A stretch of DNA of 64,000 nt from Escherichia phage teqskov, in sequence record NC_054934.1, one strand, 5' to 3'. Below are positions 9,547 through 62,145 of the stretch, piece after piece. The notes beneath the pieces were generated by a model. The model made no database searches. It was not told where the DNA came from and saw nothing but the letters and a program-made list of their open reading frames with translations. The stretch's first letter is position 1. Every line of letters starts with the position of its first letter. The position numbers and the translations under genes were made by a program.

Positions 9547-9840
9547 CTATTTAATGAATACTTTAGATGATGCCTGAGCCACAGTATCACCGCATGATAT
9601 TGGATCAGCCATTTGAACAGCTTTCTTTCCAGTGACATATACCTTAGAAGTTCTGGGTTGTGTCACTCCGCCATGTGTTTCATATGGCTTTTTAATTTCT
9701 GTATGTTCTGTAATTGGATCGCCTGCTACTAGAACAGCAATTCCTCCAGTGAATACTTTGCTTTGTGTAGCATTCACAACTGTTGGAGGCCACGCTTCAT
9801 GGCCAGCAGTAACACACTTATCATAACTTAATCCTGACAT
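9547..9840 (-). CDS. 5.4: gp5.4 PAAR-repeat spike tip protein
   Basis: 97 aa ORF directly downstream of gene 5; position and size as T4 gp5.4. Confidence 0.8.
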
Positions 9841-10398
9841 TTATGGCCTCTCATACACATAGCTTCTCAATTTATTAGCCCAACGACTCCAATTTCCAAC
9901 TATAGTTTTAGTATAATTTTTAACGAGAGTTTTTCTTACTGGAGCAGGAGGATCCGTCGGTTCAGTAGTATCAGAAGATGACCTAGAATTACTGCCAGAA
10001 CCTCCAGATTCACTTTGTTCTTGGTAGTCATATATTAATGTTACTTCGTAAGTGAATGTCTTCTGGAGATTTTGAGGAGCTTTCCACAAATACAACTGAG
10101 TATCAGAATCAGTAGGAAGTTCTTCCCATGAAGCAGCAGTTTTAAATTCATCGCCTAAACGATATTTCAACGCGTCATTTCCGAAACCAAATACAGATTC
10201 ATATGTTCCATATAAGCGATTTTCTTCTACTAAAACCCCAGGAGTTTCTTCGTAACTAGTTATATTTATAGATACTAACGTTTCACCTGTTTCTAATTGA
10301 GCGGTAAAGGTGACGTCGATAGAAGAACCTTCCATGGATTCTCCTAAATCAGCGCTCATTGGAAGTATATTAGCCAATGTCAATCCTCGATCCATCAA
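9841..10398 (-). CDS. 5.1: gene 5.1-like protein
   Basis: 185 aa ORF between gene 5 and 5.4; overlaps the gene 5 stop region, so the true start may be further downstream. Confidence 0.6.
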
Positions 10399-15407: not shown

Positions 15408-16104
<697 letters not shown>

Positions 16105-16116
16105 CTTCATAAAGTT

Positions 16117-16156
16117 GTTTACACGCTGATGAGGTAGTGATACTATTACCTCATCA
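16117..16156 (+). promoter_or_regulatory. early promoter cassette with inverted repeat (PeSL-like)
   Basis: GTTTAC box followed by 10-bp inverted repeat tgatgaggta/tacctcatca flanking gtgatactat. Confidence 0.5.
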
Positions 16157-16176
16157 AAATTAATTAGGAAAATAAA

Positions 16177-16434
16177 ATGAAAACTTATAAAGAGTTTGCT
16201 ACAGAAACTATTATCACTGAATCTTCTCATGGTATGGAAGTAAAGCTTGGAATGGCTTTAGCTGAAGCTGAGCGTCTTTTTTCTCGTATTAAAGAACTTG
16301 CTGCTGCAGTCGATCCTTCATCTTTTAAAGGAGACCAAACTAAAGTTAAAGCACTTTTAGCATTATGCTCTGATGCAGGAGAAATCGCTAAGAACGGTTC
16401 TAAGATGAAGAAACGATTAGAAGATTTAAAATAA
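16177..16434 (+). CDS. internal-protein-like small protein with capsid-targeting-type N-terminus
   Basis: 85 aa; N-terminus MKTYKEFATE resembles the T-even internal protein leader MKTYQEFIAEA. Confidence 0.6.
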   Translation: MKTYKEFATETIITESSHGMEVKLGMALAEAERLFSRIKELAAAVDPSSFKGDQTKVKALLALCSDAGEIAKNGSKMKKRLEDLK

Positions 16435-16446
16435 TTTCACAAAGTT

Positions 16447-16490
16447 GTTTACACGGGGTTTTAGTAGTGATACTATTACCCTATCAAAAC
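16447..16490 (+). promoter_or_regulatory. early promoter cassette (second copy)
   Basis: aaagttgtttacac plus gtagtgatactattaccctatc, near-identical to the copies at 16111 and 16741. Confidence 0.5.
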
Positions 16491-16512
16491 AAATGTGAAA
16501 TTGGAGAATAAA

Positions 16513-16746
16513 ATGAAAACGTATCAAGAATTTATTGCTGAAGCTGCTGATGTAAAAGTTGAGTTTATTTACATTGGCAAGAAAGATAAAATGGGCGAAA
16601 TGCCTCATGGAGTTCTTCGTGATGCATTAGATAATTTCGGTCAACTCGGTGGTGAAGAGTTTGGTGATTATTTTGTTATCTATGGACCAGAAAAAGTCAT
16701 CGAGAAATGGGCTGATAAATATAAATCAATTTTTCGTAAAAAATAA
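16513..16746 (+). CDS. internal-protein-like small protein
   Basis: 77 aa from ATG (MKTYQEFIAEA); track start 16495 is a GTG extension. Confidence 0.6.
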   Translation: MKTYQEFIAEAADVKVEFIYIGKKDKMGEMPHGVLRDALDNFGQLGGEEFGDYFVIYGPEKVIEKWADKYKSIFRKK

Positions 16747-16786
16747 GTTTACTTTTAGATAGGGTAGTGATACTATTACCCTATCT
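16747..16786 (+). promoter_or_regulatory. early promoter cassette (third copy)
   Basis: GTTTAC followed by perfect 10-bp inverted repeat agatagggta/taccctatct. Confidence 0.5.
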
Positions 16787-16804
16787 ACTACTGAGGAGAA
16801 TAAA

Positions 16805-16990
16805 ATGAAACGTTGTGAATTAATTCGAAATGTTGCTATTGCAATTTCTGCTTCCGCTTTTAGTTTTTCAATGTTTGTTGGATTTATATGCGGATTATTA
16901 ACTACAGCAGAAAATGTGTTTTCACTTGTAGTAGCATTTTTAATTGGTTTAATCGCTATCGTTATGGATAAAATTTCTAAAGGTGAATAG
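16805..16990 (+). CDS. small membrane protein
   Basis: 61 aa, two hydrophobic segments. Confidence 0.5.
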   Translation: MKRCELIRNVAIAISASAFSFSMFVGFICGLLTTAENVFSLVVAFLIGLIAIVMDKISKGE

Positions 16991-17697: not shown

Positions 17698-18209
17698 ATA
17701 TTTGTTTAGGTACTACAATTCCACAGGGTTACGTAATTGATGTCACTACCTGGGAAAATGATGGTGACAACTATAAAACTAAAACACTGTTTGGCGTAGA
17801 AGAGCATGAAATCTTACAATTCCAATATCTTTTAAAGAAGTTTAAAAGCAGACATTCTAGTACTAAAGCTGAACGTTATTGTGGTAATGGCTTGTTCAGC
17901 GAGCAATCGCTTTTTATTTATGAATACTTGGTTGAAGGACTGTTCTCAGAACAACTTTATCCAGAATTCATTAAAAAGGTCTTTGATATAGAAGTTGACC
18001 TTGGTAATAAATCCGAAGAAGACGAAGAACGCATATTTGACTTATTCTTTGTGAATGGTAATAAAGTGCTTGAAGGACTTATTAATATTTTAGGTAATGC
18101 TTCTGAGTATTATGATTATGATTTTTTGCGTGTAGTTGAGAGTGTTAAATACTCTTATATAGAAGAAGAAATTGTTTTGCCGACCGTTAAAATGTTTAAT
18201 TTGCTTTAA
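17694..18209 (+). CDS. hypothetical protein
   Basis: 171 aa ORF overlapping previous stop. Confidence 0.5.
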   Translation: MNICLGTTIPQGYVIDVTTWENDGDNYKTKTLFGVEEHEILQFQYLLKKFKSRHSSTKAERYCGNGLFSEQSLFIYEYLVEGLFSEQLYPEFIKKVFDIEVDLGNKSEEDEERIFDLFFVNGNKVLEGLINILGNASEYYDYDFLRVVESVKYSYIEEEIVLPTVKMFNLL

Positions 18210-18295: not shown

Positions 18296-18368
18296 TGGGA
18301 ATTAGCCAAGTTGGTAAGGCATAGCACTTTGACTGCTAGATGCAAAGGTTCGAGTCCTTTATTCCCAG
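18296..18368 (+). tRNA. tRNA-Gln (anticodon UUG)
   Basis: cloverleaf read by hand: acceptor tgggaat/attccca, anticodon loop cTTTGac, T-loop ttcgagt. Confidence 0.8.
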
Positions 18369-18369
18369 C

Positions 18370-18456
18370 GCGAGAATGGTCAAATTGGTAAAGGCACAGC
18401 ACTTAAAATGCTGCGGAATGATTTCCTTGTGGGTTCGAGTCCCACTTCTCGCACCA
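18370..18456 (+). tRNA. tRNA-Leu (anticodon UAA), long variable arm, CCA encoded
   Basis: acceptor gcgagaa/ttctcgc, anticodon loop cTTAAaa, T-loop gggttcgagtccc. Confidence 0.8.
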
Positions 18457-18461
18457 AATTT

Positions 18462-18535
<74 letters not shown>

Positions 18536-18545
18536 ATTTAATTTA

Positions 18546-18619
18546 CTCCGTGTAGCTCAGTTTGGTAGAGCGTCTGCTTTGGGAGCAGAATGTCGTAGGT
18601 TCAAATCCTGCCGCGGAGA
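18546..18619 (+). tRNA. tRNA-Pro (anticodon UGG)
   Basis: acceptor ctccgtg/cgcggag (one G-U), anticodon loop tTTGGga. Confidence 0.75.
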
Positions 18620-18621
18620 CT

Positions 18622-18711
18622 GGAGGCGTGGCAGAGTGGTTTAATGCACCGGTCTTGAAAACCGGCAGTCGCTCCGGCGACTCATAGGTTCAAATCCTAT
18701 CGCCTCCGCCA
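18622..18711 (+). tRNA. tRNA-Ser (anticodon UGA), long variable arm, CCA encoded
   Basis: acceptor ggaggcg/cgcctcc, anticodon loop cTTGAaa. Confidence 0.8.
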
Positions 18712-18716
18712 GTTTT

Positions 18717-18792
18717 GCTGATTTAGCTCAGTAGGTAGAGCAGTTGACTGTTAATCAATTGGTCCATGGTTCGAATCCATGCATGTCCGCCA
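18717..18792 (+). tRNA. tRNA-like gene, probably chimeric or defective (anticodon position reads GUU)
   Basis: normal D, anticodon and T arms, but 5' acceptor gctgatt pairs with 3' catgtcc at only 3 of 7 positions. Confidence 0.5.
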
Positions 18793-18918
18793 AACTTGTG
18801 ACAGTTGTCACATTAATATCTACTTGACGCGATTATAGGGGTTGAACTGATCACACTTCTCTTAATTTCGTGTGAAGACATCTTGATTGTTGGAGTAGGT
18901 ATTGCTGTGAACTAATTA

Positions 18919-18995
18919 CGGGGTGTAACTCAATTGTATAGAGTAGCGGTCCTCTAAACCGCAGGTTAAAGGTTAGAATCCTTTCACCCTGACCA
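18919..18995 (+). tRNA. tRNA-Arg (anticodon UCU), CCA encoded
   Basis: acceptor cggggtg/caccctg, anticodon stem gcggt/accgc with loop ccTCTaa. Confidence 0.75.
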
Positions 18996-19016: not shown

Positions 19017-19571
19017 ATGAGAAGTGATGTAGACTGGGACCAAATTAATTTGGCTATAAAAGCTGGATTAATATACCATGGTAATTTTGAAATAACACAA
19101 GAACTAATTGAAAATGTTGCTTTTCTTAAAATAACAGATAAGAAAAAATTCTTTTCTATGACTGAAGCCAAACGCTTGTCAAAATGGAAAGTATTTTGTA
19201 GGACTGCCGCCCTAAATCTTTTGAAATTTAAAGATGAATTTGATATAGAAAAAAGCTATCGACAGGCTTTCGTATACATAATGGTAGATACTACAAATCC
19301 TAATTATTATAAAATAGGAAGAAGTATAGAACCTGATGTTAGAGTTATAACAGCAAATACATTTTCACCGTTTAAAAGTTTTAAAATAGTATCATTTAGA
19401 TATTCCCAGGATGCAGTAGAACTTGAAAAATATATGCACAGCATTTATAATCAGGACCATATAAATGGTGAATGGTTTTTCTTTCATGACATAAGTTCCA
19501 TAGTTAAAAAATTAGATACTAAATCTACACAATTTGAAATACCAAATGAGAAACCGGGTCGCTACCGGTAA
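19017..19571 (+). CDS. T5orf172 / GIY-YIG-related domain protein
   Basis: 184 aa; segment VYIMVDTTNPNYYKIGRS ... R ... E..Y.H ... GEWFFF fits the T5orf172 pattern; no N-terminal GIY-YIG as in segB. Confidence 0.55.
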   Translation: MRSDVDWDQINLAIKAGLIYHGNFEITQELIENVAFLKITDKKKFFSMTEAKRLSKWKVFCRTAALNLLKFKDEFDIEKSYRQAFVYIMVDTTNPNYYKIGRSIEPDVRVITANTFSPFKSFKIVSFRYSQDAVELEKYMHSIYNQDHINGEWFFFHDISSIVKKLDTKSTQFEIPNEKPGRYR

Positions 19572-19859
19572 GTCGTCGGACTGATGTTCCCTGAGTAAGG
19601 AATTGCGTTAATAATCTTTGCGTTTATTGATGCCCTCTTACATCACAGCAGAAACGGCGCACCGAATTATCGATTCGAGGAAATATCTTTGCCGTAAGCC
19701 GAGTAGCGTTTTTGACGGAACGTTCGGATATGGTCGAGATATGGCCTTTTAAAAATATTGAGTAGCGTCAACTACTTAATAACCGGGTTCAAGTCCCGGC
19801 GTTTCGTACAAACACTTGCCTTAGCAGGTGGAACCCCGACAAGGTTGCCGCAAGGCTTA
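19572..19859 (+). ncRNA. probable stable RNA region (T4 species 1/2-like), boundaries not resolved
   Basis: non-coding, GC-richer, contains tRNA-like T-arm ccgggTTCAAGTcccgg; same position relative to tRNA-Arg as the T4 stable RNAs. Confidence 0.35.
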
Positions 19860-19886
19860 GCCCCGACCGAAAGGTTGGGGCTTTTT
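19860..19886 (+). terminator. rho-independent terminator
   Basis: 9-bp stem with GAAA loop (gccccgacc gaaa ggttggggc) followed by TTTTT. Confidence 0.7.
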
Positions 19887-19888
19887 AG

Positions 19889-19896
19889 TATAAATA
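19889..19896 (+). promoter_or_regulatory. late promoter TATAAATA
   Basis: exact TATAAATA about 35 nt upstream of the ATG at 19933. Confidence 0.5.
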
Positions 19897-19932
19897 AGTA
19901 TATTAAAACCACGAATTAAAACAGGAAATAAG

Positions 19933-20406
19933 ATGAAATCATATGCTCAATTTTTAAATGAAGCGGTGTTAAATGAAGCATCTAGCACTGAAATTCAAGC
20001 TGTTGCAAAAGCTGCCATTGCCGCGGGTAAATATTCCTATAAAGATGCTTCCGATGAATCACGATTCCAATTTGCTCGTGATATGAAAGCCGAAGGATTT
20101 ACAGGGAATGCAGTTAGTATGGCTTGGAAAAGTTTAGTTGCTACTGGAGCTGCTTTTGCAAAGGCTTCAGGTAAACCTGCTCCTAAGGCTGATCCTAAAG
20201 CAGCACAAGAAAAAAATATTGCTAAAGGAATTATCTCTAGGTATGAAGCAATTCTTAAAGAACTTTTGATAATCAAAACTGAAGGCCAAAAGCTAGCTCG
20301 TGCTTATAGTTTCAAAGATAACCCACATGTTCACTCTCTTGAATATGTTGAAGACATCCAAAAAATTATTAAAGACCGCATTTGGTCTGCTAAACAAATC
20401 AAATAA
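19933..20406 (+). CDS. internal-protein-like protein, Ala/Lys-rich
   Basis: 157 aa; N-terminus MKSYAQFLNEA resembles the internal protein leader. Confidence 0.55.
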   Translation: MKSYAQFLNEAVLNEASSTEIQAVAKAAIAAGKYSYKDASDESRFQFARDMKAEGFTGNAVSMAWKSLVATGAAFAKASGKPAPKADPKAAQEKNIAKGIISRYEAILKELLIIKTEGQKLARAYSFKDNPHVHSLEYVEDIQKIIKDRIWSAKQIK

Positions 20407-20414
20407 CATTCTTA

Positions 20415-20441
20415 GCCCCAGCCGAAAGGTTGGGGCTTTTT
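20415..20441 (+). terminator. rho-independent terminator (near-duplicate of 19860-19886)
   Basis: gccccagcc gaaa ggttggggc followed by TTTTT. Confidence 0.7.
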
Positions 20442-20575
20442 GGTATCTAGGCCTTTCCGGGCCTCTCTGGGCATCATTTAGTTTATACCCTTTATAATAT
20501 ATTATCCTACCTTTTAATTGTCCCTCCTGACCCTAGAATTCCCTAAAACTTTTTAAAAAATTTTTTCACAAAACT

Positions 20576-20605
20576 GTTTACATCCCTGTTCTTCCATGGT
20601 ACTAT
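20576..20605 (+). promoter_or_regulatory. early promoter cassette (PeSL-like)
   Basis: ttttcacaaaactGTTTACa ... tgGTACTATacaactatcaactactgatacag; near-identical copy at 61825-61890. Confidence 0.55.
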
Positions 20606-20648
20606 ACAACTATCAACTACTGATACAGAAAACAATTTGGAGAATGAA

Positions 20649-20912
20649 ATGGATAATTACGGCGAACTGTTCAACTTCTTTATGAAATGTGTTTCAGAAG
20701 ATTTCGGTCGTACAGTGAATGATATTAAAGTTATCGGTCCTGATCATCCGATGTTTGAAACTTACGCAGTAATGGGTAATGAAGACGGTCAGTGGTATAC
20801 TGTAAAGGTTGTGATTAACATGTTCACGGCAGAAGGTTATGTTAAACTGTCTTCTAAAGTTTACCATGATAACGACGAAATCGCAGAAGAATATTTCAAT
20901 AATATGAAATAA
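20649..20912 (+). CDS. hypothetical protein
   Basis: 87 aa from ATG with SD GGAG 6 nt upstream; track start 20637 is TTG. Confidence 0.5.
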   Translation: MDNYGELFNFFMKCVSEDFGRTVNDIKVIGPDHPMFETYAVMGNEDGQWYTVKVVINMFTAEGYVKLSSKVYHDNDEIAEEYFNNMK

Positions 20913-20981
20913 TTGTGTACAAACACCAAGGACGGTGTTATTATAGACTTATCAAAAACAAATACAGAAACGGAGAAATAA

Positions 20982-21194
20982 ATGACTACTTTAATTATTT
21001 GGTTCGACGAAAATGAAGAAACATACTGCGTGAACATTGGCGAAAGCCCAATGCCAGAATTTGAATCTTCAGATAAAAACTCGGTTGTATCTTGGGCTGA
21101 AGGTTATAAAGCAGCAAAAGGCGATGTTGAAATAGTTTACAAACTCTTGGGAGTAGAGTATAATACTCCCACGGATTATAAAACCCTTAATTAA
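20982..21194 (+). CDS. hypothetical protein
   Basis: 70 aa ORF with SD GGAGAA. Confidence 0.5.
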
Positions 21195-21208
21195 CTAAAG
21201 GAAATGCT

Positions 21209-24645: not shown

Positions 24646-24666
24646 ACAGTTACTTGGAGGGATAAA

Positions 24667-25083
24667 ATGACTCGTATTAATTTGACTTTAGTATCTGAAC
24701 TTGCTGATCAACATTTAATCGCAGAATACCGTGAATTGCCACGTGTTTTTGGTATAGTTCGTAAGCATGTGGCAAACGGTAAGCGCGTTAAAGATTTTAA
24801 AATATCTTCCGAGTTTATTTTAGGTTCTGGTCATGTTACGTTCTTTTACGATAAGTTAGAATTTTTGCGAAAGCGTCAATTAGACATTATAACGGAATGC
24901 TTAAAACGAGGGTTCAGTATAAAAGATACTGAAGTTCCTGACATCAGCGATATTCCAGTAGAATGGAAAAATGATTATAATCCATGCAAATCAGCTATTA
25001 AATTGAGTCAACAACGACTTGATGAAAAAATTTTAATGAAACCACATTGGTATAAGTATTACGGTAAAAATATTTACATTTAA
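24667..25083 (+). CDS. denV: endonuclease V (pyrimidine dimer glycosylase) denV
   Basis: 138 aa; N-terminus [17 protein letters not shown] and overall pattern match remembered T4 endoV, with divergence in the C-terminal third. Confidence 0.9.
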
Positions 25084-25092
25084 AGGAAACAT

Positions 25093-25566
25093 ATGAAAAC
25101 ATATCAAGAATTTATCACTGAAGCAGCTATTAATTCTCAAATTATTGCTGAATCTTTTACCGATCTTTTGAAATTTAAAAAAGGTCAAAAAATCACTGCT
25201 GTATTGGATGATGGTACAGAAGTTGAGATGGATGTACAGGGATATAATTATGCAGTAGATGGAAAACTGTATAATAAATCTCATGCTAAATTTGATTCAT
25301 TTGACGACTTTGTTAATACAGTTGAAGATGAAAAAACTCGTAGATCCATTGCAACTGGTGATGCTAAGGTTCTTATGGCACATGGTCATGAACGCATTCG
25401 CGCTAAACAGAATAAAATGGGTGAAGATAATTTTGCATTAGTTGGTTATCAATCTGGTAAACAAACTTATGGCTATCAACGTACTGCTACCATGTATAAT
25501 AAAAATGGTAAAATCGCTTTCGTGAATAGTAAAGGTTCTATTCAGTACGTTAAATCGTTCAAATAA
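25093..25566 (+). CDS. internal-protein-like protein
   Basis: 157 aa; N-terminus MKTYQEFITEA matches the internal protein leader. Confidence 0.6.
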   Translation: MKTYQEFITEAAINSQIIAESFTDLLKFKKGQKITAVLDDGTEVEMDVQGYNYAVDGKLYNKSHAKFDSFDDFVNTVEDEKTRRSIATGDAKVLMAHGHERIRAKQNKMGEDNFALVGYQSGKQTYGYQRTATMYNKNGKIAFVNSKGSIQYVKSFK

Positions 25567-31862: not shown

Positions 31863-31886
31863 AGTCTCCTTCGGGAGACTTTTTTC
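31863..31886 (+). terminator. rho-independent terminator
   Basis: agtctccTTCGggagact followed by TTTTTT. Confidence 0.7.
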
Positions 31887-31895
31887 ATTTTACCG

Positions 31896-31925
31896 GTTTA
31901 CTTTCCGTTTGAGCTGTGGTACTAT
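31896..31925 (+). promoter_or_regulatory. early promoter cassette
   Basis: GTTTAC ... tgGTACTATacaac. Confidence 0.5.
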
Positions 31926-31953
31926 ACAACCATCGGATAAAGAGGAGAACATC

Positions 31954-32142
31954 ATGAAAATTGAAGCACTCAATCAAGAAGGAAATATCTACGTCATCAT
32001 TAATGGTGATTTTTTCGTCGACATGGATGAAGTTACTAGTGAAGAACTTGTAGAATTTCTTAAGAAACGTTATAATATGTGTGATGAAGTTGCAACTCAC
32101 ATGGCGTGTGCAATATTCTCTCTTTCATATGTGGTGGAATAA
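31954..32142 (+). CDS. hypothetical small protein
   Basis: 62 aa from ATG with SD GAGGAG. Confidence 0.45.
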
Positions 32143-33421: not shown

Positions 33422-33943
33422 ATGTTTATTTCAAGTGGAAGCGGTTTAATTCGTGTTGAATTTAAAAATGACATCTTCCTTAGTCAAGGAGATGATATTA
33501 TTAAAATGAGTTATGACGAAATCAAGAAAATTTGTCATGCTCTTGAAAGTCATGGAAAAGTGAACGCTGTTATTGATATTGGCGATTTATGGGTGACACT
33601 TTATGAAGTATCCGAAGGATTTAACATTGAAGATGAAAATAACATTTTAGCTATTGATAAAAGAAGTGATTTGTTTGATGTATTAAAAGTTTATGAACAG
33701 TCAAATGGCGGAAGAAAAGCTGCATTGATTTATCAAAAACCGCATTCATGTGGAACTGCTTCAATCATTTCAAATATTGAAGATGAAGTTGATACTTATA
33801 TGTGTGTTTTAAAAGCTGGTGGTGACCGTCATCCGGATTTTATTTCTATTCGTCAAAACAATGGAGAAATTTCATTATCAAAATCAGAAGCTGAAGCTAT
33901 GATTAAGTATTTAACAACTGTTACGCCTTCAATGAAAGGATAA
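33422..33943 (+). CDS. hypothetical protein, paralog B
   Basis: 173 aa; same motifs as 32870..33415. Confidence 0.5.
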   Translation: MFISSGSGLIRVEFKNDIFLSQGDDIIKMSYDEIKKICHALESHGKVNAVIDIGDLWVTLYEVSEGFNIEDENNILAIDKRSDLFDVLKVYEQSNGGRKAALIYQKPHSCGTASIISNIEDEVDTYMCVLKAGGDRHPDFISIRQNNGEISLSKSEAEAMIKYLTTVTPSMKG

Positions 33944-33945
33944 TT

Positions 33946-34407
33946 ATGATTATTAATGAAAACTCTTGGCACTATAAATTATTCAAATTGTTTAACGATG
34001 AATGGCAACGACCTAAGACACTATGCGCATATTTTTGGTCTATTGCCATTCCTACATTTTTCGTTTCTATTTTTGGATGTGCTATACTCGTAGGGCTAAC
34101 AATTATTTGTGCAGAAAGCCTACAACGTTGGCTTATTTTTGGTAGTTTATGGACTTTGCTTCCATCAGCATTTATACTTGCGCTTTTGGTTGTTTTACTT
34201 ATTATCGGTTCATTTGTTATTCCTGCACATTTGCGTGAAAAATATAAAGATTATAAATGGAAAAAGGATTATGCTTTACACGTAGAAAATATTGATAGGG
34301 CGTATAAAGGTTTACCTCCTATTCAACCTAAGAAATCGATTATCGTCGAATTTTTAAAAGCTCGTAAAGCTAAAGTATGTCCTGTTATTGAATATAAGGC
34401 TGAATGA
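33946..34407 (+). CDS. membrane protein
   Basis: 153 aa with hydrophobic helices; stop overlaps next ATG. Confidence 0.5.
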   Translation: MIINENSWHYKLFKLFNDEWQRPKTLCAYFWSIAIPTFFVSIFGCAILVGLTIICAESLQRWLIFGSLWTLLPSAFILALLVVLLIIGSFVIPAHLREKYKDYKWKKDYALHVENIDRAYKGLPPIQPKKSIIVEFLKARKAKVCPVIEYKAE

Positions 34408-35417: not shown

Positions 35418-35419
35418 TA

Positions 35420-35444
35420 GGGAGCCTTCGGGCTCCCTTTTTTA
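35420..35444 (+). terminator. rho-independent terminator
   Basis: gggagccTTCGggctccc followed by TTTTTT. Confidence 0.7.
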
Positions 35445-35465
35445 TTTAAATTTTTTCACAAAATG

Positions 35466-35500
35466 GTTTACAAGCATAAAGCTTTGTGGTACTATACAAC
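35466..35500 (+). promoter_or_regulatory. early promoter cassette (PeSL-like)
   Basis: ttttcacaaaatgGTTTACa ... tgGTACTATacaactatcaactgatac. Confidence 0.55.
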
Positions 35501-35529
35501 TATCAACTGATACGGATTTGGAGAATAAA

Positions 35530-36498
35530 ATGAAAACTGTAACTATCAATAAGGGTATCTACTTCGGTAAAGAAATCTCTGGAACTTTTGAGCTCTTAGG
35601 CGAATGGTTCCCAGATAATGCTCCGGTAGATGCACAAGGAGATGGTAAAGTTTTTGTTGAAATTGACGGTAAGCGTCGCGGTGTTTGGGTTTACAAATCA
35701 GACATTTCATATGATGGTGTAAAAGTTGAAGAAGTTAAAGAATCGTATGAAGATATGAAAACCCGCATTAATAAAAGATTTAATGTTATGGGAATGATGA
35801 CGAATGGTATTATTAATGGAAATATTCGTTCATTAATTATCTCTGGCGCAGCAGGTATCGGTAAAACGTATTCTTTAGATAAAGCTTTAAATAAAGCAAA
35901 TGATATTGGATACATTGAATATAAAAGCATTAACGGTAAAATCTCCGGTATCGGTCTTTATGAACAGCTTTGGAATAATCGTGAAGAGAATTCTGTCCTT
36001 TTGATTGATGATGTGGATGTTTTCTCTGATATGGACATTCTTAATCTTCTGAAAGCTGCTCTGGACACTGGAGAGACCCGTAAAGTCTGCTGGAGCACTG
36101 CATCTTCTTACTTGGAAGAAAAAGGCATTGACCGTGAGTTTGAATTTAAAGGAACGATTGTTTTTATCACAAACGTTGACATTGACCGCGAATTAGACCG
36201 TGGTACTAAACTTGCTCCACATTTACAAGCATTAGTGTCCCGCTCGGTTTATTTGGATTTGGGTGTTCACACTAATGAAGAAATTATGGTCAGGGTTGAA
36301 GATGTTATTCTTTCAACTGACATGATGCAAAAGCGCGGTCTTTCTGATGAAGAAACTTATAAAGCATTATCATGGATGAAAGTCAATGTTAATCGTTTAC
36401 GCAATGTTTCACTGCGTACTGCTCTTTATCTTGCTGACTTTATTATGACCGACAAAAATGGTTGGGAAGAAATTGCTGAGGTTACTCTTCTGAAATAA
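35530..36498 (+). CDS. P-loop ATPase (AAA-like)
   Basis: 322 aa from ATG after SD GGAG; Walker A GAAGIGKT, Walker B VLLIDDVD, sensor-like TIVFITN. Confidence 0.55.
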   Translation: MKTVTINKGIYFGKEISGTFELLGEWFPDNAPVDAQGDGKVFVEIDGKRRGVWVYKSDISYDGVKVEEVKESYEDMKTRINKRFNVMGMMTNGIINGNIRSLIISGAAGIGKTYSLDKALNKANDIGYIEYKSINGKISGIGLYEQLWNNREENSVLLIDDVDVFSDMDILNLLKAALDTGETRKVCWSTASSYLEEKGIDREFEFKGTIVFITNVDIDRELDRGTKLAPHLQALVSRSVYLDLGVHTNEEIMVRVEDVILSTDMMQKRGLSDEETYKALSWMKVNVNRLRNVSLRTALYLADFIMTDKNGWEEIAEVTLLK

Positions 36499-36599
36499 TT
36501 CATAAGAGGCCTTCTATGACAAAAAGGCAGTTCAGAAATAGATTATATGGACTGCCATCAAAAAGATGACTAGAATTAAACTGGTAAATGGAGGTAATG

Positions 36600-36902
36600 A
36601 TGTTATACTCAAAGGCTCGTGAAATTTACGAAACTAAAATTAAAGAAGCAGTATTTCAGTTCGCAACGACAATGCGTTGGACAAATGACTGGGAGTATTC
36701 AAAAAATCATAAGAAGCCCATGGTGACAAGAAAGGCTCATATGTTAGTGTTAATAGACCGTGAGCAGATTAAAGCCCGAGAAGCCCTCCAGAATCATAAA
36801 AAGGCTGCCTTTGAATGGTTTATGGATAACACTGCTCCTGAGACTAAGAAAGCGGTAAGTGCATGGTTCAGTGGAAAAAATTGTGAAAGAAGTTTCTTTT
36901 AG
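36600..36902 (+). CDS. hypothetical protein
   Basis: 100 aa from ATG 5 nt after GGAGG. Confidence 0.45.
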   Translation: MLYSKAREIYETKIKEAVFQFATTMRWTNDWEYSKNHKKPMVTRKAHMLVLIDREQIKAREALQNHKKAAFEWFMDNTAPETKKAVSAWFSGKNCERSFF

Positions 36903-36904
36903 TG

Positions 36905-36940
36905 GTTTACAAGACTGTTCCTCTGTGGTACTATACAACT
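36905..36940 (+). promoter_or_regulatory. early promoter cassette
   Basis: GTTTACaagactgttcctctgtgGTACTATacaactatcaactac, same core as 61842-61890. Confidence 0.55.
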
Positions 36941-36962
36941 ATCAACTACGGAGGAACACAAA

Positions 36963-44552: not shown

Positions 44553-46366
44553 CAATTGAAAAAGAAATTGAAGGATTGATTCATAAAACTAATAAAGACC
44601 TTTTAAACGAGAATGCTAATAAAGATTCTCGTGTTTTTCCAACTCAACGGGACCTTATGGCTGGTATTGTGTCTAAACACATTGCCAAAAATATGGTCCC
44701 GTCTTTTATTATGAAAGCGCATGAAAGCGGAATTATTCATTTCCATGATATTGATTATTCCCCTGCTCTTCCATTTACTAATTGTTGTTTAGTAGATTTA
44801 AAAGGAATGCTTGAAAACGGATTTAAGCTAGGTAATGCGCAGATTGAAACTCCTAAATCAATTGGAGTTGCTACTGCAATTATGGCACAAATTACTGCGC
44901 AAGTTGCTTCTCACCAATACGGCGGAACGACTTTTGCGAATGTAGATAAAGTACTTTCTCCTTATGTTAAACGCACCTATGCAAAACATATTGAGGATGC
45001 AGAAAAATGGCAAATCGCTGATGCGTTGAATTATGCTCAATCTAAAACAGAAAAAGACGTATACGATGCATTTCAAGCTTATGAATATGAAGTAAATACT
45101 CTCTTTAGTTCAAACGGACAAACGCCTTTTGTAACAATTACATTTGGTACAGGAACTGACTGGACTGAACGAATGATTCAGAAAGCAATTCTGAAAAATC
45201 GTATTAAAGGTCTTGGTCGTGATGGGATAACTCCTATTTTCCCTAAGCTTGTTATGTTTGTTGAAGAAGGTGTTAATCTTTATAAAGACGATCCGAACTA
45301 TGATATTAAACAGCTTGCTCTAGAGTGCGCAAGCAAAAGAATGTATCCTGATATTATTTCAGCTAAGAACAATAAAGCTATCACTGGTTCATCTATTCCT
45401 GTTTCTCCGATGGGATGCCGTAGTTTCTTGAGCGTATGGAAAGATTCGACTGGTAATGAAATTCTTGATGGACGTAATAATCTTGGTGTTGTAACACTGA
45501 ATCTTCCTCGCATCGCGTTAGATTCTTATATTGGAACACAATTCAATGAACAGAAATTTATCGAATTGTTCAATGAACGAATGGATTTATGTTTTGAAGC
45601 ATTGATGTGTAGAATTAGTTCCTTAAAAGGAGTTAAAGCGACTGTTGCTCCTATTCTTTACCAAGAAGGTGCATTCGGGGTTCGTCTTAAACCTGATGAC
45701 GATATAATTGAGTTATTTAAAAACGGCAGAAGTTCAGTGTCTCTAGGATACATTGGTATTCACGAATTAAATATTCTTGTCGGTCGTGATATTGGACAAG
45801 AAATTTTAACTAAAATGAATGCTCATCTTAAGCAGTGGACTGAAAGAACCGGATTTGCTTTTAGTTTGTATTCTACTCCTGCTGAAAACCTTTGTTATCG
45901 CTTCTGTAAACTTGATACAGAAAAATATGGAAGTGTAAAGGATGTTACTGATAAAGGCTGGTACACTAACAGTTTTCATGTTTCAGTAGAAGAAAATATT
46001 ACTCCGTTTGAAAAGATTTCTCGTGAAGCGCCATATCATTTCATTGCGACAGGTGGTCACATTTCTTATGTTGAACTTCCTGATATGAAAAATAACTTAA
46101 AAGGTCTTGAGGCCGTGTGGGATTATGCTGCACAGCATTTAGATTATTTTGGTGTTAATATGCCAGTAGATAAGTGTTTTACATGCGGAAGCACCCATGA
46201 AATGACTCCTACTGAAAACGGATTTGTTTGTTCTATTTGTGGAGAAACTGATCCTAAAAAGATGAACACAATAAGAAGAACATGTGGTTATTTGGGAAAT
46301 CCGAACGAACGCGGATTTAATCTCGGTAAAAATAAAGAAATCATGCATAGGGTTAAACACCAATGA
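44549..46366 (+). CDS. nrdD: anaerobic ribonucleotide reductase NrdD, uninterrupted
   Basis: 605 aa; C-terminal glycyl radical region RTCGYLGN; continuous frame, no intron. Confidence 0.9.
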   Translation: MTIEKEIEGLIHKTNKDLLNENANKDSRVFPTQRDLMAGIVSKHIAKNMVPSFIMKAHESGIIHFHDIDYSPALPFTNCCLVDLKGMLENGFKLGNAQIETPKSIGVATAIMAQITAQVASHQYGGTTFANVDKVLSPYVKRTYAKHIEDAEKWQIADALNYAQSKTEKDVYDAFQAYEYEVNTLFSSNGQTPFVTITFGTGTDWTERMIQKAILKNRIKGLGRDGITPIFPKLVMFVEEGVNLYKDDPNYDIKQLALECASKRMYPDIISAKNNKAITGSSIPVSPMGCRSFLSVWKDSTGNEILDGRNNLGVVTLNLPRIALDSYIGTQFNEQKFIELFNERMDLCFEALMCRISSLKGVKATVAPILYQEGAFGVRLKPDDDIIELFKNGRSSVSLGYIGIHELNILVGRDIGQEILTKMNAHLKQWTERTGFAFSLYSTPAENLCYRFCKLDTEKYGSVKDVTDKGWYTNSFHVSVEENITPFEKISREAPYHFIATGGHISYVELPDMKNNLKGLEAVWDYAAQHLDYFGVNMPVDKCFTCGSTHEMTPTENGFVCSICGETDPKKMNTIRRTCGYLGNPNERGFNLGKNKEIMHRVKHQ

Positions 46367-46833
46367 ATTATGATAGATTTTATCCCTGTGATTTTGTGAA
46401 CGGCCCTGGATGCAGGGCCGTTCTTTTCGTTACAGGTTGTTTGCATAAATGCGAAGGGTGTTATAATAAATCAACATGGAATGCTAGAAATGGTATTCCA
46501 TTTACTGGTGAAACACTAGAACAATTGATTGAATGTTTGAATAATGATTATATAGAAGGATTGACTATAACTGGAGGTGACCCTCTCTATCCTGATAACC
46601 GAGATGTTATTCATTGCATTGTTCAAACTATTAAAAATCTTTATCCCAATAAAAGCATTTGGTTGTGGACAGGATATAAGTTTGAAGATATTAAACAACT
46701 AGAAATGCTTAAATATGTTGATGTTATTATTGATGGGAAGTATGAGAAAAATCTTCCGACCAAAAAGCTGTGGCGAGGATCAGATAATCAGCGACTTTGG
46801 TCAAATACCGATGGGGTGTGGACACATGATTAA
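46363..46833 (+). CDS. nrdG: anaerobic RNR activating protein NrdG
   Basis: 156 aa; radical-SAM-type cysteines CLHKCEGC. Confidence 0.85.
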   Translation: MNYDRFYPCDFVNGPGCRAVLFVTGCLHKCEGCYNKSTWNARNGIPFTGETLEQLIECLNNDYIEGLTITGGDPLYPDNRDVIHCIVQTIKNLYPNKSIWLWTGYKFEDIKQLEMLKYVDVIIDGKYEKNLPTKKLWRGSDNQRLWSNTDGVWTHD

Positions 46834-46948: not shown

Positions 46949-47161
46949 ATGTATAAATTTCGTAAAGGTTTAGCTGATTTTCTTACAACTGTAACATTCT
47001 TTCTGTTTATGGCAGTTGGAGCTATTTTCCTTATTCCTTTTATTGCTATATTTTTCGTGATTAGTTTAATTTCTCCAGAAAAGGGCTTATCTTCTAGTGA
47101 GTTCAATGAGCGTCTGGATAAAATTACTAACAAGCTGAATGCTGCTCTTAGTAAGGAATAG
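46949..47161 (+). CDS. small membrane protein
   Basis: 70 aa, long hydrophobic segment. Confidence 0.45.
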   Translation: MYKFRKGLADFLTTVTFFLFMAVGAIFLIPFIAIFFVISLISPEKGLSSSEFNERLDKITNKLNAALSKE

Positions 47162-47163
47162 TT

Positions 47164-47472
47164 GTGAAACAAAATAAGATTGAAGTCTATGGAATTCCAG
47201 ATGAAGTAGGTCGTTGTCCTGGATGTCAATCAGTTACAAAACTTCTAAAGGAGCTCAATGCTCCTTTTACTTTCTATAAAGTTCTTACTAATAATGGTAA
47301 GATTGAGTATGATCGTCCACTGATTGTATCTCTTGCCAAACGCGCCGGATTCACATCTCTTAATATTCGGTATCCGGTCATTTTCATTAATGATTCTAGG
47401 CAAAAGAACATTAAACACTTCAAAGAAACTCTCATTTCACTTGGATATGATAGAGATATCATAGAAGATTAA
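47164..47472 (+). CDS. nrdH: glutaredoxin-like protein NrdH (GTG start)
   Basis: 102 aa; CPGC active site; no in-frame ATG near the start. Confidence 0.7.
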   Translation: MKQNKIEVYGIPDEVGRCPGCQSVTKLLKELNAPFTFYKVLTNNGKIEYDRPLIVSLAKRAGFTSLNIRYPVIFINDSRQKNIKHFKETLISLGYDRDIIED

Positions 47473-47475
47473 GAC

Positions 47476-47498
47476 GGGCCCTCTGGGCCTTTCTTTCT
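47476..47498 (+). terminator. hairpin plus T-rich tract
   Basis: ggccc tct gggcc followed by tttctttct. Confidence 0.4.
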
Positions 47499-47569
47499 CG
47501 CATTCTGTATATTACCATTCTAAGCTATCGTTCCCTTCTTGTCATTCCCTAAAATATTTTCACAAAGTT

Positions 47570-47599
47570 GTTTACAAGAAGTTCAAACCGTGGTATTAT
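47570..47599 (+). promoter_or_regulatory. early promoter cassette
   Basis: cattccctaaaatattttcacaaagttGTTTACaag ... tgGTATTATtaacat. Confidence 0.5.
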
Positions 47600-47629
47600 T
47601 AACATATGAATTACCTTTGAGGAATTGAT

Positions 47630-48231: not shown

Positions 48232-48432
48232 ATGAATCCTGAATCTATGTTATCGCAAAAGCTTCGTGAAGAACGCGCCAAATTTTTCCAGAACATGAAA
48301 CACAATGGTATTGAGGATGAAGTTTTTCTAAATTGGTTCTGGAATAATAAGTACACAGCATGTGAAGGAGCTTTGTTATTGTCAGTCGCAATGATGTACG
48401 AAGGCTGGAAGGGTGCCAAACAGTTTAGCTAA
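48232..48432 (+). CDS. hypothetical protein
   Basis: 66 aa ORF. Confidence 0.45.
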   Translation: MNPESMLSQKLREERAKFFQNMKHNGIEDEVFLNWFWNNKYTACEGALLLSVAMMYEGWKGAKQFS

Positions 48433-48450
48433 GGGCTTCGGCCCTTTTTT
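48432..48450 (+). terminator. rho-independent terminator
   Basis: agggcTTCGgccct followed by TTTTTT. Confidence 0.7.
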
Positions 48451-50453: not shown

Positions 50454-50868
50454 AATTAATGCAGGATTTACTGAATCTTTGAATGGTCATCTTTGTGTGA
50501 AAATTTCTGAAAAAGAATACCATGATAGTTCAATTAAAGAAGTTAATCCTCCTATTGTAAGAGCAGACCCTAATATGAAAGTGTGGGTTGATTCTTATCA
50601 AGTCAAAAAATGGTGGCAGTTATGAAAGATGAACACCCAGACTTCTGAAATAGATTATAATAAAATTCGTTCCTCTAAAGAGGAAATGATGAGACTCTTT
50701 AAAGCGTCTCATGATAAAGCTAAAGCAGAAGGAACTATAAAATATAAGCGCATAAAATTTAAAAGTTCTAACGAGCCTCTGTATGGCGTATTATGTGGAT
50801 AGGAGCTTCGGCTCCTATATTGCTTTATAAATTTTTGGTAAAATAAACCAAAACAAAGAGGATATTAA

Positions 50869-52071
50869 ATGAAAGTATGTATTTTTATGGCTCGAGGTCT
50901 TGAAGGTTGTGGTGTAACTAAATTTTCTCTTGAGCAACGTGATTGGTTTATTAAGAATGGTCATGAAGTAACTTTGGTTTATGCTAAAGATAAATCATTT
51001 ACTCGTAATTGCGCGCATGATTATAAATCATTTTCAATTCCGGTTTTATTGGCAAAAGAATATGATAAAACACTTAAGCTGGTAAATGATTGTGATATTC
51101 TAATTATCAATTCAGTTCCTGCTACTTCGGTTGAAGAAGACACTATTAATAACTATAAAAAAATTATTGATAACATTAAACCTTCTGTTCGTGTTGTAGT
51201 TTATCAACATGACCATTCTTCTCTTTCTTTGCGCCGAAATTTGGGATTAGAAGAAACTGTTCGTCGAGCTGATGTTATTTTTAGCCATTCTGATAATGGT
51301 GATTTTAATAAAGTTCTGATGAAAGAATGGTATCCTGAAACAGTTTCTCTGTTTGATGATATTGAAGAAGCACCGACAGTATATAACTTTCAGCCTCCTA
51401 TGGATATTGCGAAGGTTCGGTCAACCTACTGGAAAGATGTTTCTGAAATTAACATGAATATCAACCGTTGGATTGGTCGTACGACTACATGGAAAGGTTT
51501 TTATCAGATGTTTGATTTTCATGAAAAACATCTTAAACCTGCAGGACTAAGTACTATTATGGAAGGTCTGGAACGTTCTCCAGCGTTCATTCCTATTAAA
51601 GAAAAAGGAATTCCATACGAGTATTATCGTCTTCATCAAGTAGACCAAATTAAAATTGCTCCTAATTTGCCAACGCAAATTCTTGACCGTTATGTAAATA
51701 GCGAAATGCTTGAACGTATGAGTAAATCCGGTTTTGGTTATCAGCTGAGTAAGTTGGATAAAAAATATCTACAGCGCTCTTTAGAATATACTCATCTCGA
51801 GCTTGGTGCATGTGGAACAATTCCGGTATTTTGGAAATCTACTGGCGAAAATTTAAAATTCCGTGTTGATAATACTCCTTTGACCTCGCATGATAGCGGT
51901 ATCATTTGGTTTGATGAAAATGACATGGAATCAACATTTGAACGTATTAAAGAACTGTCATCTGATCGAACTCTTTATGACCGCGAACGCGAAAAAGCTT
52001 ATGAATTTTTGTATCAGCATCAAGATTCAAGCTTCTGCTTTAAAGAACAGTTTGACATTATTACAAAATAA
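50869..52071 (+). CDS. agt: DNA alpha-glucosyltransferase
   Basis: 400 aa; near-identical to remembered T4 alpha-gt (FMARGLEGCGVTKFSLEQRDWFIKNGHEVTLVYAKDKSF). Confidence 0.9.
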   Translation: MKVCIFMARGLEGCGVTKFSLEQRDWFIKNGHEVTLVYAKDKSFTRNCAHDYKSFSIPVLLAKEYDKTLKLVNDCDILIINSVPATSVEEDTINNYKKIIDNIKPSVRVVVYQHDHSSLSLRRNLGLEETVRRADVIFSHSDNGDFNKVLMKEWYPETVSLFDDIEEAPTVYNFQPPMDIAKVRSTYWKDVSEINMNINRWIGRTTTWKGFYQMFDFHEKHLKPAGLSTIMEGLERSPAFIPIKEKGIPYEYYRLHQVDQIKIAPNLPTQILDRYVNSEMLERMSKSGFGYQLSKLDKKYLQRSLEYTHLELGACGTIPVFWKSTGENLKFRVDNTPLTSHDSGIIWFDENDMESTFERIKELSSDRTLYDREREKAYEFLYQHQDSSFCFKEQFDIITK

Positions 52072-52087
52072 AGGGCTTCGGCCCTTT
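52071..52087 (+). terminator. hairpin aagggcTTCGgccctt
   Basis: GC stem with TTCG loop immediately after agt stop. Confidence 0.5.
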
Positions 52088-56780: not shown

Positions 56781-56800
56781 AAGGGCTTCGGCCCTTTATA
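56781..56800 (+). terminator. rho-independent terminator
   Basis: aagggcTTCGgcccttt after gene 45 stop. Confidence 0.6.
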
Positions 56801-58949: not shown

Positions 58950-58970
58950 AAGGGGCTTCGGCCCCTTATT
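58950..58970 (+). terminator. hairpin aaggggcTTCGgcccctt
   Basis: GC stem with TTCG loop, then ATTT. Confidence 0.5.
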
Positions 58971-61736: not shown

Positions 61737-61758
61737 AGGGACCTCCGGGTCCCTTTTT
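61737..61758 (+). terminator. rho-independent terminator
   Basis: agggaccTCCGggtccct followed by TTTTT. Confidence 0.7.
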
Positions 61759-61841
61759 CATACAAGTAATATAAATCTATACTTATGAAAAACAGATGAT
61801 TCTGGACCTTTAGAATTCCCTAAAAAATTTTTCACAAAACT

Positions 61842-61871
61842 GTTTACAAGACTGTTCCTCTGTGGTATTAT
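61842..61871 (+). promoter_or_regulatory. early promoter cassette (PeSL-like)
   Basis: tagaattccctaaaaaattttttcacaaaactGTTTACaag ... tgGTATTATacaactatcaactactgatacag. Confidence 0.55.
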
Positions 61872-61908
61872 ACAACTATCAACTACTGATACAGATTTGG
61901 AGAATAAA

Positions 61909-62145
61909 ATGAAAATTGTTATGGGATGCTTAGCAGTTTGTTTAGTTGCATTAGCAGCAGTTCCATTTGTTAGTGTTGAAAATGATACTCAACCTGTGAT
62001 TGAATCTAGCACCGTTATTCACACTAATGGTAAAATATCAGTTAAAATTGATGATAATCTTCATGTGAATACAAATGGATCTTTAGGTGTGCAAATGGGT
62101 AATACCTGCATAAGCACTACTGGAGTAATTACTACTTGCATTTGA
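61909..62145 (+). CDS. small secreted protein
   Basis: 78 aa from ATG after SD GGAG; N-terminal signal-like MKIVMGCLAVCLVALAAVPF. Confidence 0.5.
   Translation: MKIVMGCLAVCLVALAAVPFVSVENDTQPVIESSTVIHTNGKISVKIDDNLHVNTNGSLGVQMGNTCISTTGVITTCI

Follow-up and report, generated by a model that had tools for sequence, protein, structure and literature searches.

PeSLs (promoter-early-stem-loop elements) were defined in phages RB49/phi1, where promoter and terminator activity and mini-circles were shown, according to the text of Arbiol et al. (2010, PMC2839356). The text of Comeau et al. (2014, PMC4122927) extends them to PST/T4 phages, with the consensus TTTACW-N17-TAYWAT and a stem-loop just upstream, and describes 'degraded' half elements near indels; a search of it did not turn up e.8, nrdC or imm.1. 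As T-even analogues of PeSLs, the text of Arbiol et al. points to the IP-locus elements of Repoila et al. (1994) (PMC2839356). T4 early promoters have an 'uber' design of UP, -35, TGn and -10 motifs with extra consensus regions; Alt stimulates these promoters and RegB cleaves in SD sequences (Hinton, 2010, PMC2988021).

We analysed 64,000 nt of Escherichia phage teqskov (NC_054934.1), hereafter the window, in which a first-pass annotation had noticed a dispersed early promoter element and proposed that its copies are PeSLs marking accessory gene insertions. Five copies are present, as it reported, all on the + strand. They lie upstream of e.8, nrdC.10, nrdC.8 and 55.6 and in the intergenic slot between gene 43 and imm.1 (Table 1), each at an orthologous T4 intergenic site (near T4 70.7 kb for the e.8 copy). 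Their identification as PeSLs was right: all five match the PST/T4 consensus (Arbiol et al., 2010; Comeau et al., 2014), as TTTACA-N17-TACTAT or TTTACA-N17-TATTAT. The elements are therefore of an already known kind in a well-studied phage group, and their T4 neighbours (e.x, nrdC.x, 55.x and imm.1) correspond to a hyperplastic, non-core location. The reading we consider likely is that the copies are early start modules that also serve as occasional, site-dependent recombination substrates, as in the PeSL 'linker' model.

The window belongs to Tequatrovirus. Its + strand follows the complement strand of T4 colinearly, in descending order between positions 90,618 and 25,497 (local BLAST against NC_000866), or 90.6 to 25.5 kb on the T4 map. 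A 4-kb piece around the finding has matches in 773 phage records, nearly all Tequatrovirus (best 96.7%). Seventeen insertions, deletions or replacements interrupt the colinearity with T4 (local BLAST), and six of these differences are homing-endonuclease genes (segC, segB, mobD, I-TevII, mobC and mobB). T4's segC, mobD, I-TevII (with its intron), mobC and mobB are missing or replaced in the window, and a 184-aa ORF (19017-19571) lies at T4's segB position, between the tRNA cluster and an rnaD-like region. The tRNA genes (18296-18992) number seven, against eight in T4, and are arranged differently.

The early promoter family

The copies share one order of parts: an A/T tract, the -35 GTTTACA, a 15-nt spacer, TGGTAYTAT, ACAACTATCAAC, a G-poor leader, a GGAG or GAGG SD and an ATG, with SD and ATG present in all five. 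TGGTAYTAT is a TGn-extended -10, the TG preceding the -10. Three copies begin with a ATTCCCTAAAA block. The A/T-rich tract TTTTCACAAANNNGTTTACA is found in four of the five; the nrdC.8 copy has an A-rich coding tail, GGAAAAAATTGTGAAAGAAG, instead. The pattern GTTTACA-N15-GGTAYTAT (at most two mismatches) has 14 matches in the window against 0.34 expected, and all of them are on the + strand, the T4 early direction. Judging by sequence and T4 orthology, the copies are T4-type early promoters with a leader and SD, and would have promoter and terminator activity. MotA-dependent middle promoters were considered and rejected, since the copies have GTTTACA at the -35 where a MotA box would read TGCTT. 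An Rfam scan found only seven tRNAs and no family overlapping the elements, and the leaders are not significantly unstructured (MFE 0 to -3 kcal/mol, z +0.3 to +1.4 against shuffles). Promoter features are absent from the T4 reference records NC_000866 and AF158101; fPS-2 records annotate a 'predicted early promoter' and a terminator at 43/imm.1, and a promoter and terminator at the e.8 equivalent. The five sites may correspond to listed T4 early promoters.

The element had also been described as usually lying just downstream of a terminator. This holds for four of the five copies, which have a hairpin and T-run before the -35 (Table 1); there is none for nrdC.8, whose cassette abuts or overlaps the 3' end of nrdC.9. 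Only one of the 10 other early promoters in the window (-35 at 31896) has a nearby terminator. A second dispersed repeat consists of near-identical terminator hairpins, (A)AGGGCTTCGGCCCT(T), at 48431-48446, 52072-52085, 56781-56796 and 58952-58965; the last borders a 220-nt regA/gene 43 insert that T4, T2, ZN18 and G8 lack.

Table 1. Positions of the cassettes, their parts and neighbouring features in the window.
Feature	Position	Strand	Remarks
e.8 terminator, hairpin and T-run	20414..20446	+	139 nt from its end to the -35; 92% direct repeat of 19856-19891
e.8 promoter-leader cassette	20534..20648	+	-35 20576-20582; ATG 20649
e.8 upstream block TAGAATTCCCTAAAA	20534-20548	+	followed by UP-like A/T tract
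e.8 extended -10 GGTACTAT	20598-20605	+	followed by leader with GGAG SD
nrdC.10 terminator, hairpin AGGGAGCCTTCGGGCTCCCT and T-run	35419..35445	+	28 nt before -35
nrdC.10 promoter-leader cassette	35446..35529	+	-35 35466-35472; -10 35488-35495; ATG 35530
nrdC.8 promoter-leader cassette	36885..36962	+	-35 36905-36911; -10 36927-36934; ATG 36963
55.6 short G+C hairpin GGGCCCTCTGGGCCT, T-rich tail	47476..47498	+	80 nt from its end to the -35; from a separate hairpin scan with the same criteria
55.6 promoter cassette	47544..47629	+	-35 47570-47576; -10 47592-47599; ATG 47630
Gene 43 terminator, hairpin AGGGACCTCCGGGTCCCT and T-run	61737..61762	+	88 nt upstream of -35; fPS-2 annotation
43/imm.1 promoter-leader cassette	61811..61908	+	-35 61842-61848; -10 61864-61871; ATG of ORF-A 61909
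ORF-A, 78 aa, hydrophobic N-terminus, variable slot	61909..62145	+	absent from T4-type genomes
Cassette upstream of e.8	19856..20406	+	terminator copy 19856-19891 and 157-aa IP-like ORF 19933-20406; absent from T4 and T2
e.7 slot (outside the five copies)	20915..21208	+	bounded by early promoters, -35 20915 and 21135
mobD.5-slot terminator and early promoter cassette	31863..31955	+	hairpin 31863-31880; -35 31896; related leader ACAACCATC
Sites of the segC, mobD, I-TevII, mobC and mobB losses or replacements	9839-9844, 33440-34403, 45084-45087, 46363-46383, 50853-50878		

The e.8 and 43/imm.1 copies had been called almost verbatim, a fair description: 20534-20650 and 61811-61911 are identical at 92 of 100 aligned positions, with three indels (10, 1 and 6 nt). 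With 20556-20629 as reference, the five copies make one repeat family, with ungapped identities of 89% (61822-61895), 69% (36885-36958), 66% (35446-35519) and 62% (47550-47623). All five were also aligned together. The sharing extends beyond the generic -35 and -10 hexamers to spacers, leaders and upstream blocks. The leader TATACAACTATCAACT is common to four copies and is matched four times in the window against 0.10 expected (at most two mismatches), and TTTTCACAAANNNGTTTACA five times against 0.06. Exact matches to ATTCCCTAAAA number three in the window, all within the family; with one mismatch allowed there are five against 3.0 expected, which is not significant.

A block comparison covered the 15 credible early promoters of the window, namely the five copies and 10 others. 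Unrelated pairs agree at 5-13 of 25 upstream positions, 3-8 of 15 spacer positions and 5-10 of 20 leader positions. By comparison, the e.8 and 43/imm.1 promoters agree at 20/25 upstream and 20/20 leader positions, and the nrdC.8 and 43/imm.1 promoters at 15/15 spacer and 17/20 leader positions. The nrdC.10 promoter has the upstream block and leader of the family, the leader with a 3-nt gap. The 55.6 promoter has its own leader and shares with the family only ATTCCCTAAAA and the UP/-35 blocks (18/25 upstream); its upstream block matches the IP-locus promoters 16117 and 16447 equally well, so it is the weakest, marginal member. The family is real but mosaic.

The IP-locus promoters lie in the ipI locus (16089-16810), which is replaced relative to T4 and has three tandem promoter repeats (copies at 16109, 16439 and 16739). 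Their -35s are at 16117, 16447 and 16747, with spacings of 330 and 300 nt, and behind the first two lie small genes whose products begin MKTYKEFATET and MKTYQEFIAEA. At 24656-25566 the window has neither ipIII nor ipII between e and denV; an IP-like gene beginning near 25094 (MKTYQEFITEA) instead comes after denV, like the annotated Ip4 of RB51.

Gene turnover at the cassettes

Every copy had been placed directly upstream of an accessory ORF. Each does supply the SD and ATG of an ORF, and all five ORFs fall in PHROGs of 'unknown function'; however, e.8, nrdC.10, nrdC.8 and 55.6 are conserved in the genus and are not insertions. The imm.1 product is a DUF5481 protein, and nrdC.10 has sub-threshold P-loop matches only. 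Furthermore, the core regulator gene motA is preceded by the module (MSKVTYIIKASNDVLNEK), which there follows closely on a terminator. The leader pattern also stands before a gene whose product begins MKFKFYYAKHK, and before a 37-aa ORF of G8 with an nrdC.8-type core. The module thus serves early expression in general and does not tag accessory insertions.

We compared flanking genes using about 44 kb from T2, RB51, Yersinia phage ZN18 and G8, 9 kb from KAW1E185, and database records. The proposal that the cassettes mark accessory insertions survives at three sites. The 43/imm.1 and nrdC.10 cassettes have junctions within them, those at e.8 are mainly in the upstream terminator, and at nrdC.8 and 55.6 none falls within the repeats. 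The 55.6 copy is a single unbroken piece in 503/503 records and the nrdC.8 copy in 497 records, and no insert comes closer to them than the one at 36479-36514 (a seg-like gene) and that at 47149-47173, each some 400 nt upstream. In relatives of about 82% identity, such as phage mogra, the nrdC.8 alignment starts about 40 nt upstream of the -35 (window 36864-36872), which would reflect either a junction between genera at the edge of the promoter or no more than divergence of nrdC.9. The promoter repeat alone does not mark an insertion, as identical-looking copies elsewhere are completely stable.

At least four to five arrangements occur at nrdC.10, with junctions in the terminator, -35, -10/leader or SD. 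T2 has a tandem cassette between nrdC.11 and nrdC.10, consisting of a terminator with UP/-35, a 161-aa ORF, and a terminator with a full promoter; the tandem repeat flanking the ORF exceeds 60 nt. The ORF (15928-16413 of the fetched T2 piece) matches the C-terminal part of the profile of PHROG 832, 'RNA polymerase ADP-ribosylase' (E = 1.8e-23). In ZN18 the terminator is fused directly to the family -10/leader, followed by two ORFs, the second a DUF4031 protein, and then by a promoter almost identical to the IP-locus promoter 16447 of the window that merges at the nrdC.10 SD/ATG. Both rearrangements share a left junction at window 35434-35435. Among 526 records, other arrangements carry insertions (+264, +484 or about +430 nt) or lack 50 nt. 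The nrdC.8 promoter of ZN18 (17905-17950 of the fetched piece) carries an IP-type patch, GGTATTATtaccctatc, in place of GGTACTATacaactatc, apparently another conversion between promoter families.

Junctions at e.8 lie at window 20411 and 20433 (T4, T2, ZN18), and one record has a junction at the 5' edge of the promoter block, 20526. The 157-aa ORF upstream is flanked by the 36-nt duplicated terminator, and the RB51 annotation describes the site as 'flanked by 34 bp imperfect direct repeat'. The ORF starts MKSYAQFLNEA, like the N-terminal targeting motif of T-even internal proteins, and ZN18 has a further IP-like ORF (MKTYAEFLTEA) at the same spot, pointing to an additional site for IP-like cassettes in the interval from rnaC to e.8. 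The contents of the e.7 slot also differ, among T4, G8, RB51 and ZN18.

Over window 19,549-62,600, comparison with six genomes gave 48 unique breakpoints. Of these, 13 fall in a promoter cassette (ten) or a terminator (four), and 35 lie elsewhere. Random positions would give 2.6 cassette breakpoints, a null that is rejected. Against random intergenic positions there is no enrichment in cassettes (13 observed, 11.4 expected, P about 0.35), under a crude gene model that takes only + strand ATG-started ORFs of at least 40 aa and leaves 13% of the DNA intergenic.

These breakpoints bear on whether the cassettes take part in gene movement or are cargo. Genes might move 'moron'-like with their own promoter and terminator, joined by illegitimate or microhomology events or moved through homing-endonuclease activity. 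The 35 breakpoints outside cassettes, many of them inside or at the ends of genes, would fit such movement, as would the share of homing-endonuclease genes among the T4 differences, the inserts about 400 nt from the stable copies and the loss of ORF-A by microhomology described below. Three observations make us doubt it as the main explanation: both nrdC.10 junctions are in cassette sequence, with the long T2 repeat flanking the ORF; a duplicated terminator flanks the IP-like ORF upstream of e.8; and the 43/imm.1 promoter blocks were exchanged independently of ORF content. Cassettes as pure cargo thus seem unlikely, and the reading as modules that recombine is taken up next at the site where promoter and gene both vary.

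The gene 43/imm.1 promoter and the proposed mechanism

The 43/imm.1 cassette of the window is a mosaic, with an upstream block and leader of e.8 type and a spacer identical to that of nrdC.8. The e.8, nrdC.10, nrdC.8 and 55.6 promoters keep their own spacer and leader in every genome compared (5-8 genomes for the first three promoters, and IMG/VR contigs). Only the 43/imm.1 promoter varies in spacer and leader type, across 13 named genomes and IMG/VR contigs. The IMG/VR leader scan returned 21 stretches from about seven contigs, two of them G8 and ZN18 again, and these count as extra loci rather than as population counts. The spacer is of nrdC.8 type (agactgttcctctgt) in the window, T2 and RB18, of e.8 type (tccctgttcttccat and variants) in ZN18, F26, HY01, fPS-2, F13076 and KNP5, and chimeric (agactgtt joined to cttccat) in T4, RB9, SH7 and RB68. 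The leader is of e.8/nrdC.10 type or, in T2 and RB68, of nrdC.8 type. Indeed, the T2 module is identical to the nrdC.8 promoter-leader of the window over 63 nt (100%). All four combinations of the spacer 3' half with an nrdC.8 or non-nrdC.8 leader exist (window, T4, T2 and RB68), so crossovers within some 30 nt are needed. Since blocks of several nucleotides match those fixed at other loci, in several combinations, segments must have moved between loci, with crossovers inside an element of about 60 nt. We did not count the single ACT unit of ACTACT that separates the e.8 from the nrdC.10 leader type, as slippage could produce it.

The gene behind this promoter varies as well, being ORF-A, ORF-B or imm.1 directly. 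ORF-A is present in about 315 of 507 records; in the rest it is absent (T4 type) or replaced (T2/RB68 type), as two-piece alignments indicate. The left junction is at window 61889-61922, inside the leader, SD and start. The T4-type loss of ORF-A joins at an 8-nt microhomology, ATGAAAAT, of the ORF-A and imm.1 starts, with no second cassette. In T2, RB68 and RB51 the replacement is ORF-B, an unrelated 83-aa ORF, which is at 43/imm.1 in all 31 Tequatrovirus records that have it. Dhakavirus homologues (54% identity) are located between rI.-1 and mobD.3, directly behind a terminator and GTTTACA-N15-GATACTAT. There the homologue occupies the mobD.5 slot, behind a cassette like that at 31863..31955 in the window. 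This placement fits ORFs being put behind such cassettes, as far as location can speak for a mechanism that it does not prove.

T4-type phages recombine very frequently. The 43/imm.1 mosaics could on that account have come from diverged alleles of the same locus meeting in coinfection, together with slippage in the ACT repeat, which would also explain the one-unit difference between the e.8 and nrdC.10 leader types. We regard this as very unlikely to be the whole explanation. The alternative 43/imm.1 spacers are identical, or nearly so, to those fixed at nrdC.8 and e.8, the T2 copy equals the nrdC.8 module, and ZN18 carries an IP-locus promoter at nrdC.10 and an IP-type patch at nrdC.8, so some ectopic transfers would have been needed to create the alleles. 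It is just as improbable that strong T4 early promoters were merely selected toward one long consensus, with no recombination role or history. Several observations would suit such selection: the upstream block matches a UP-like A/T tract and is common also to the IP-locus promoters; most of the 15 early promoters repeat an ATCA some 7 nt past the -10; extra consensus regions are noted for T4 (PMC2988021); two copies (nrdC.8 and 55.6) are never at junctions; and the breakpoints show no excess against the intergenic null. Yet spacers are not expected to come under such a consensus, and those of nrdC.8 and 43/imm.1 agree at 15/15 positions against a background of 3-9/15; the leader agreement reaches 20/20. 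The block mosaics already contradict this reading, the 43/imm.1 alternatives, chimeric spacer included, being identical to other loci, and the T2 and ZN18 rearrangement junctions lie inside the cassette.

We return to the reading of the copies as start modules that occasionally recombine. Host sigma-70 RNA polymerase would read each module immediately after infection, through a UP-like tract (AAAAATTTTTCACAAAA), the -35 GTTTACA, the 15-nt spacer and TGGTAYTAT, into a start region containing ATCAAC, a G-poor leader, a GGAG-type SD and a small early gene; the usual upstream terminator hairpin would insulate the unit. Starting early transcription and translation would be the primary function, as the sequences and their T4 orthologues suggest. 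Several of the 60-100-nt modules are near-identical and all have the same orientation, so they could also be substrates for the phage homologous recombination system. Exchange between copies at different loci would patch promoter segments across loci, and exchange within terminator, promoter or SD blocks would insert, delete or replace adjacent small ORFs. By sequence comparison, such exchange is evident at 43/imm.1 and nrdC.10 and in the terminator part of e.8. It would be occasional and site-dependent and not a property of every copy, as in the PeSL 'linker' model (Arbiol et al., 2010; Comeau et al., 2014).

We are evenly divided on whether the promoter-leader modules form a recombining paralogous family with 43/imm.1 as a hotspot, repeatedly patched from e.8, nrdC.8 and nrdC.10 whatever gene follows. 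If they do, the 500 or more sequenced Tequatrovirus genomes would give conversion-tract lengths and the minimal ectopic homology at single-nucleotide resolution, and only some PeSLs would be 'hot'. The mosaic is a compact, testable example of exchange between dispersed promoters.

Relation to described elements

The value of the comparison lies mainly in calibrating the PeSL idea: the elements are real and more alike than promoter function requires, and two or three sites are visibly crossover points for swaps of small early genes, which vary the accessory gene set of T4-like phages. Like PeSLs, the copies are intergenic and combine an A/T-rich tract, an early promoter, in four of them a stem-loop or terminator, and an SD and start. 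They also lie in hyperplastic regions before ORFs of unknown function, three of them beside insertions, deletions or replacements between close relatives. In T2 the nrdC.10 site is arranged as PeSL-ORF-PeSL in tandem, a type for which excision as a mini-circle has been proposed, and the half cassette of ZN18 corresponds to a 'degraded' element. Unlike in PeSLs, only the nrdC.10 copy has an adjacent stem-loop (28 nt); three others have theirs at 80-139 nt and one has none, and two of the copies have no associated plasticity.

The copies resemble T4 early promoters in their UP/-35/TGn/-10 architecture, GTTTAC -35 variant, early orientation and orthologous intergenic positions. However, the generic consensus does not explain the identical spacers and leaders of the sub-family. 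Conserved early-promoter elements also flank interchangeable small genes at the IP locus (Repoila et al., 1994, as presented in the text of PMC2839356); the window has three tandem copies in its ipI locus, and an IP-type promoter replaced the nrdC.10 promoter of ZN18. Unlike the IP-locus repeats, the five copies are spread across 41 kb, in front of non-IP genes. The lambdoid morons, too, consist of one accessory gene accompanied by a promoter and terminator of its own (Hendrix et al., 2000, likewise as presented in the text of PMC2839356). The block-wise patchwork at 43/imm.1 is finer than the detail found in the text of the PeSL papers, and at nucleotide level it may be a new detail of these elements.
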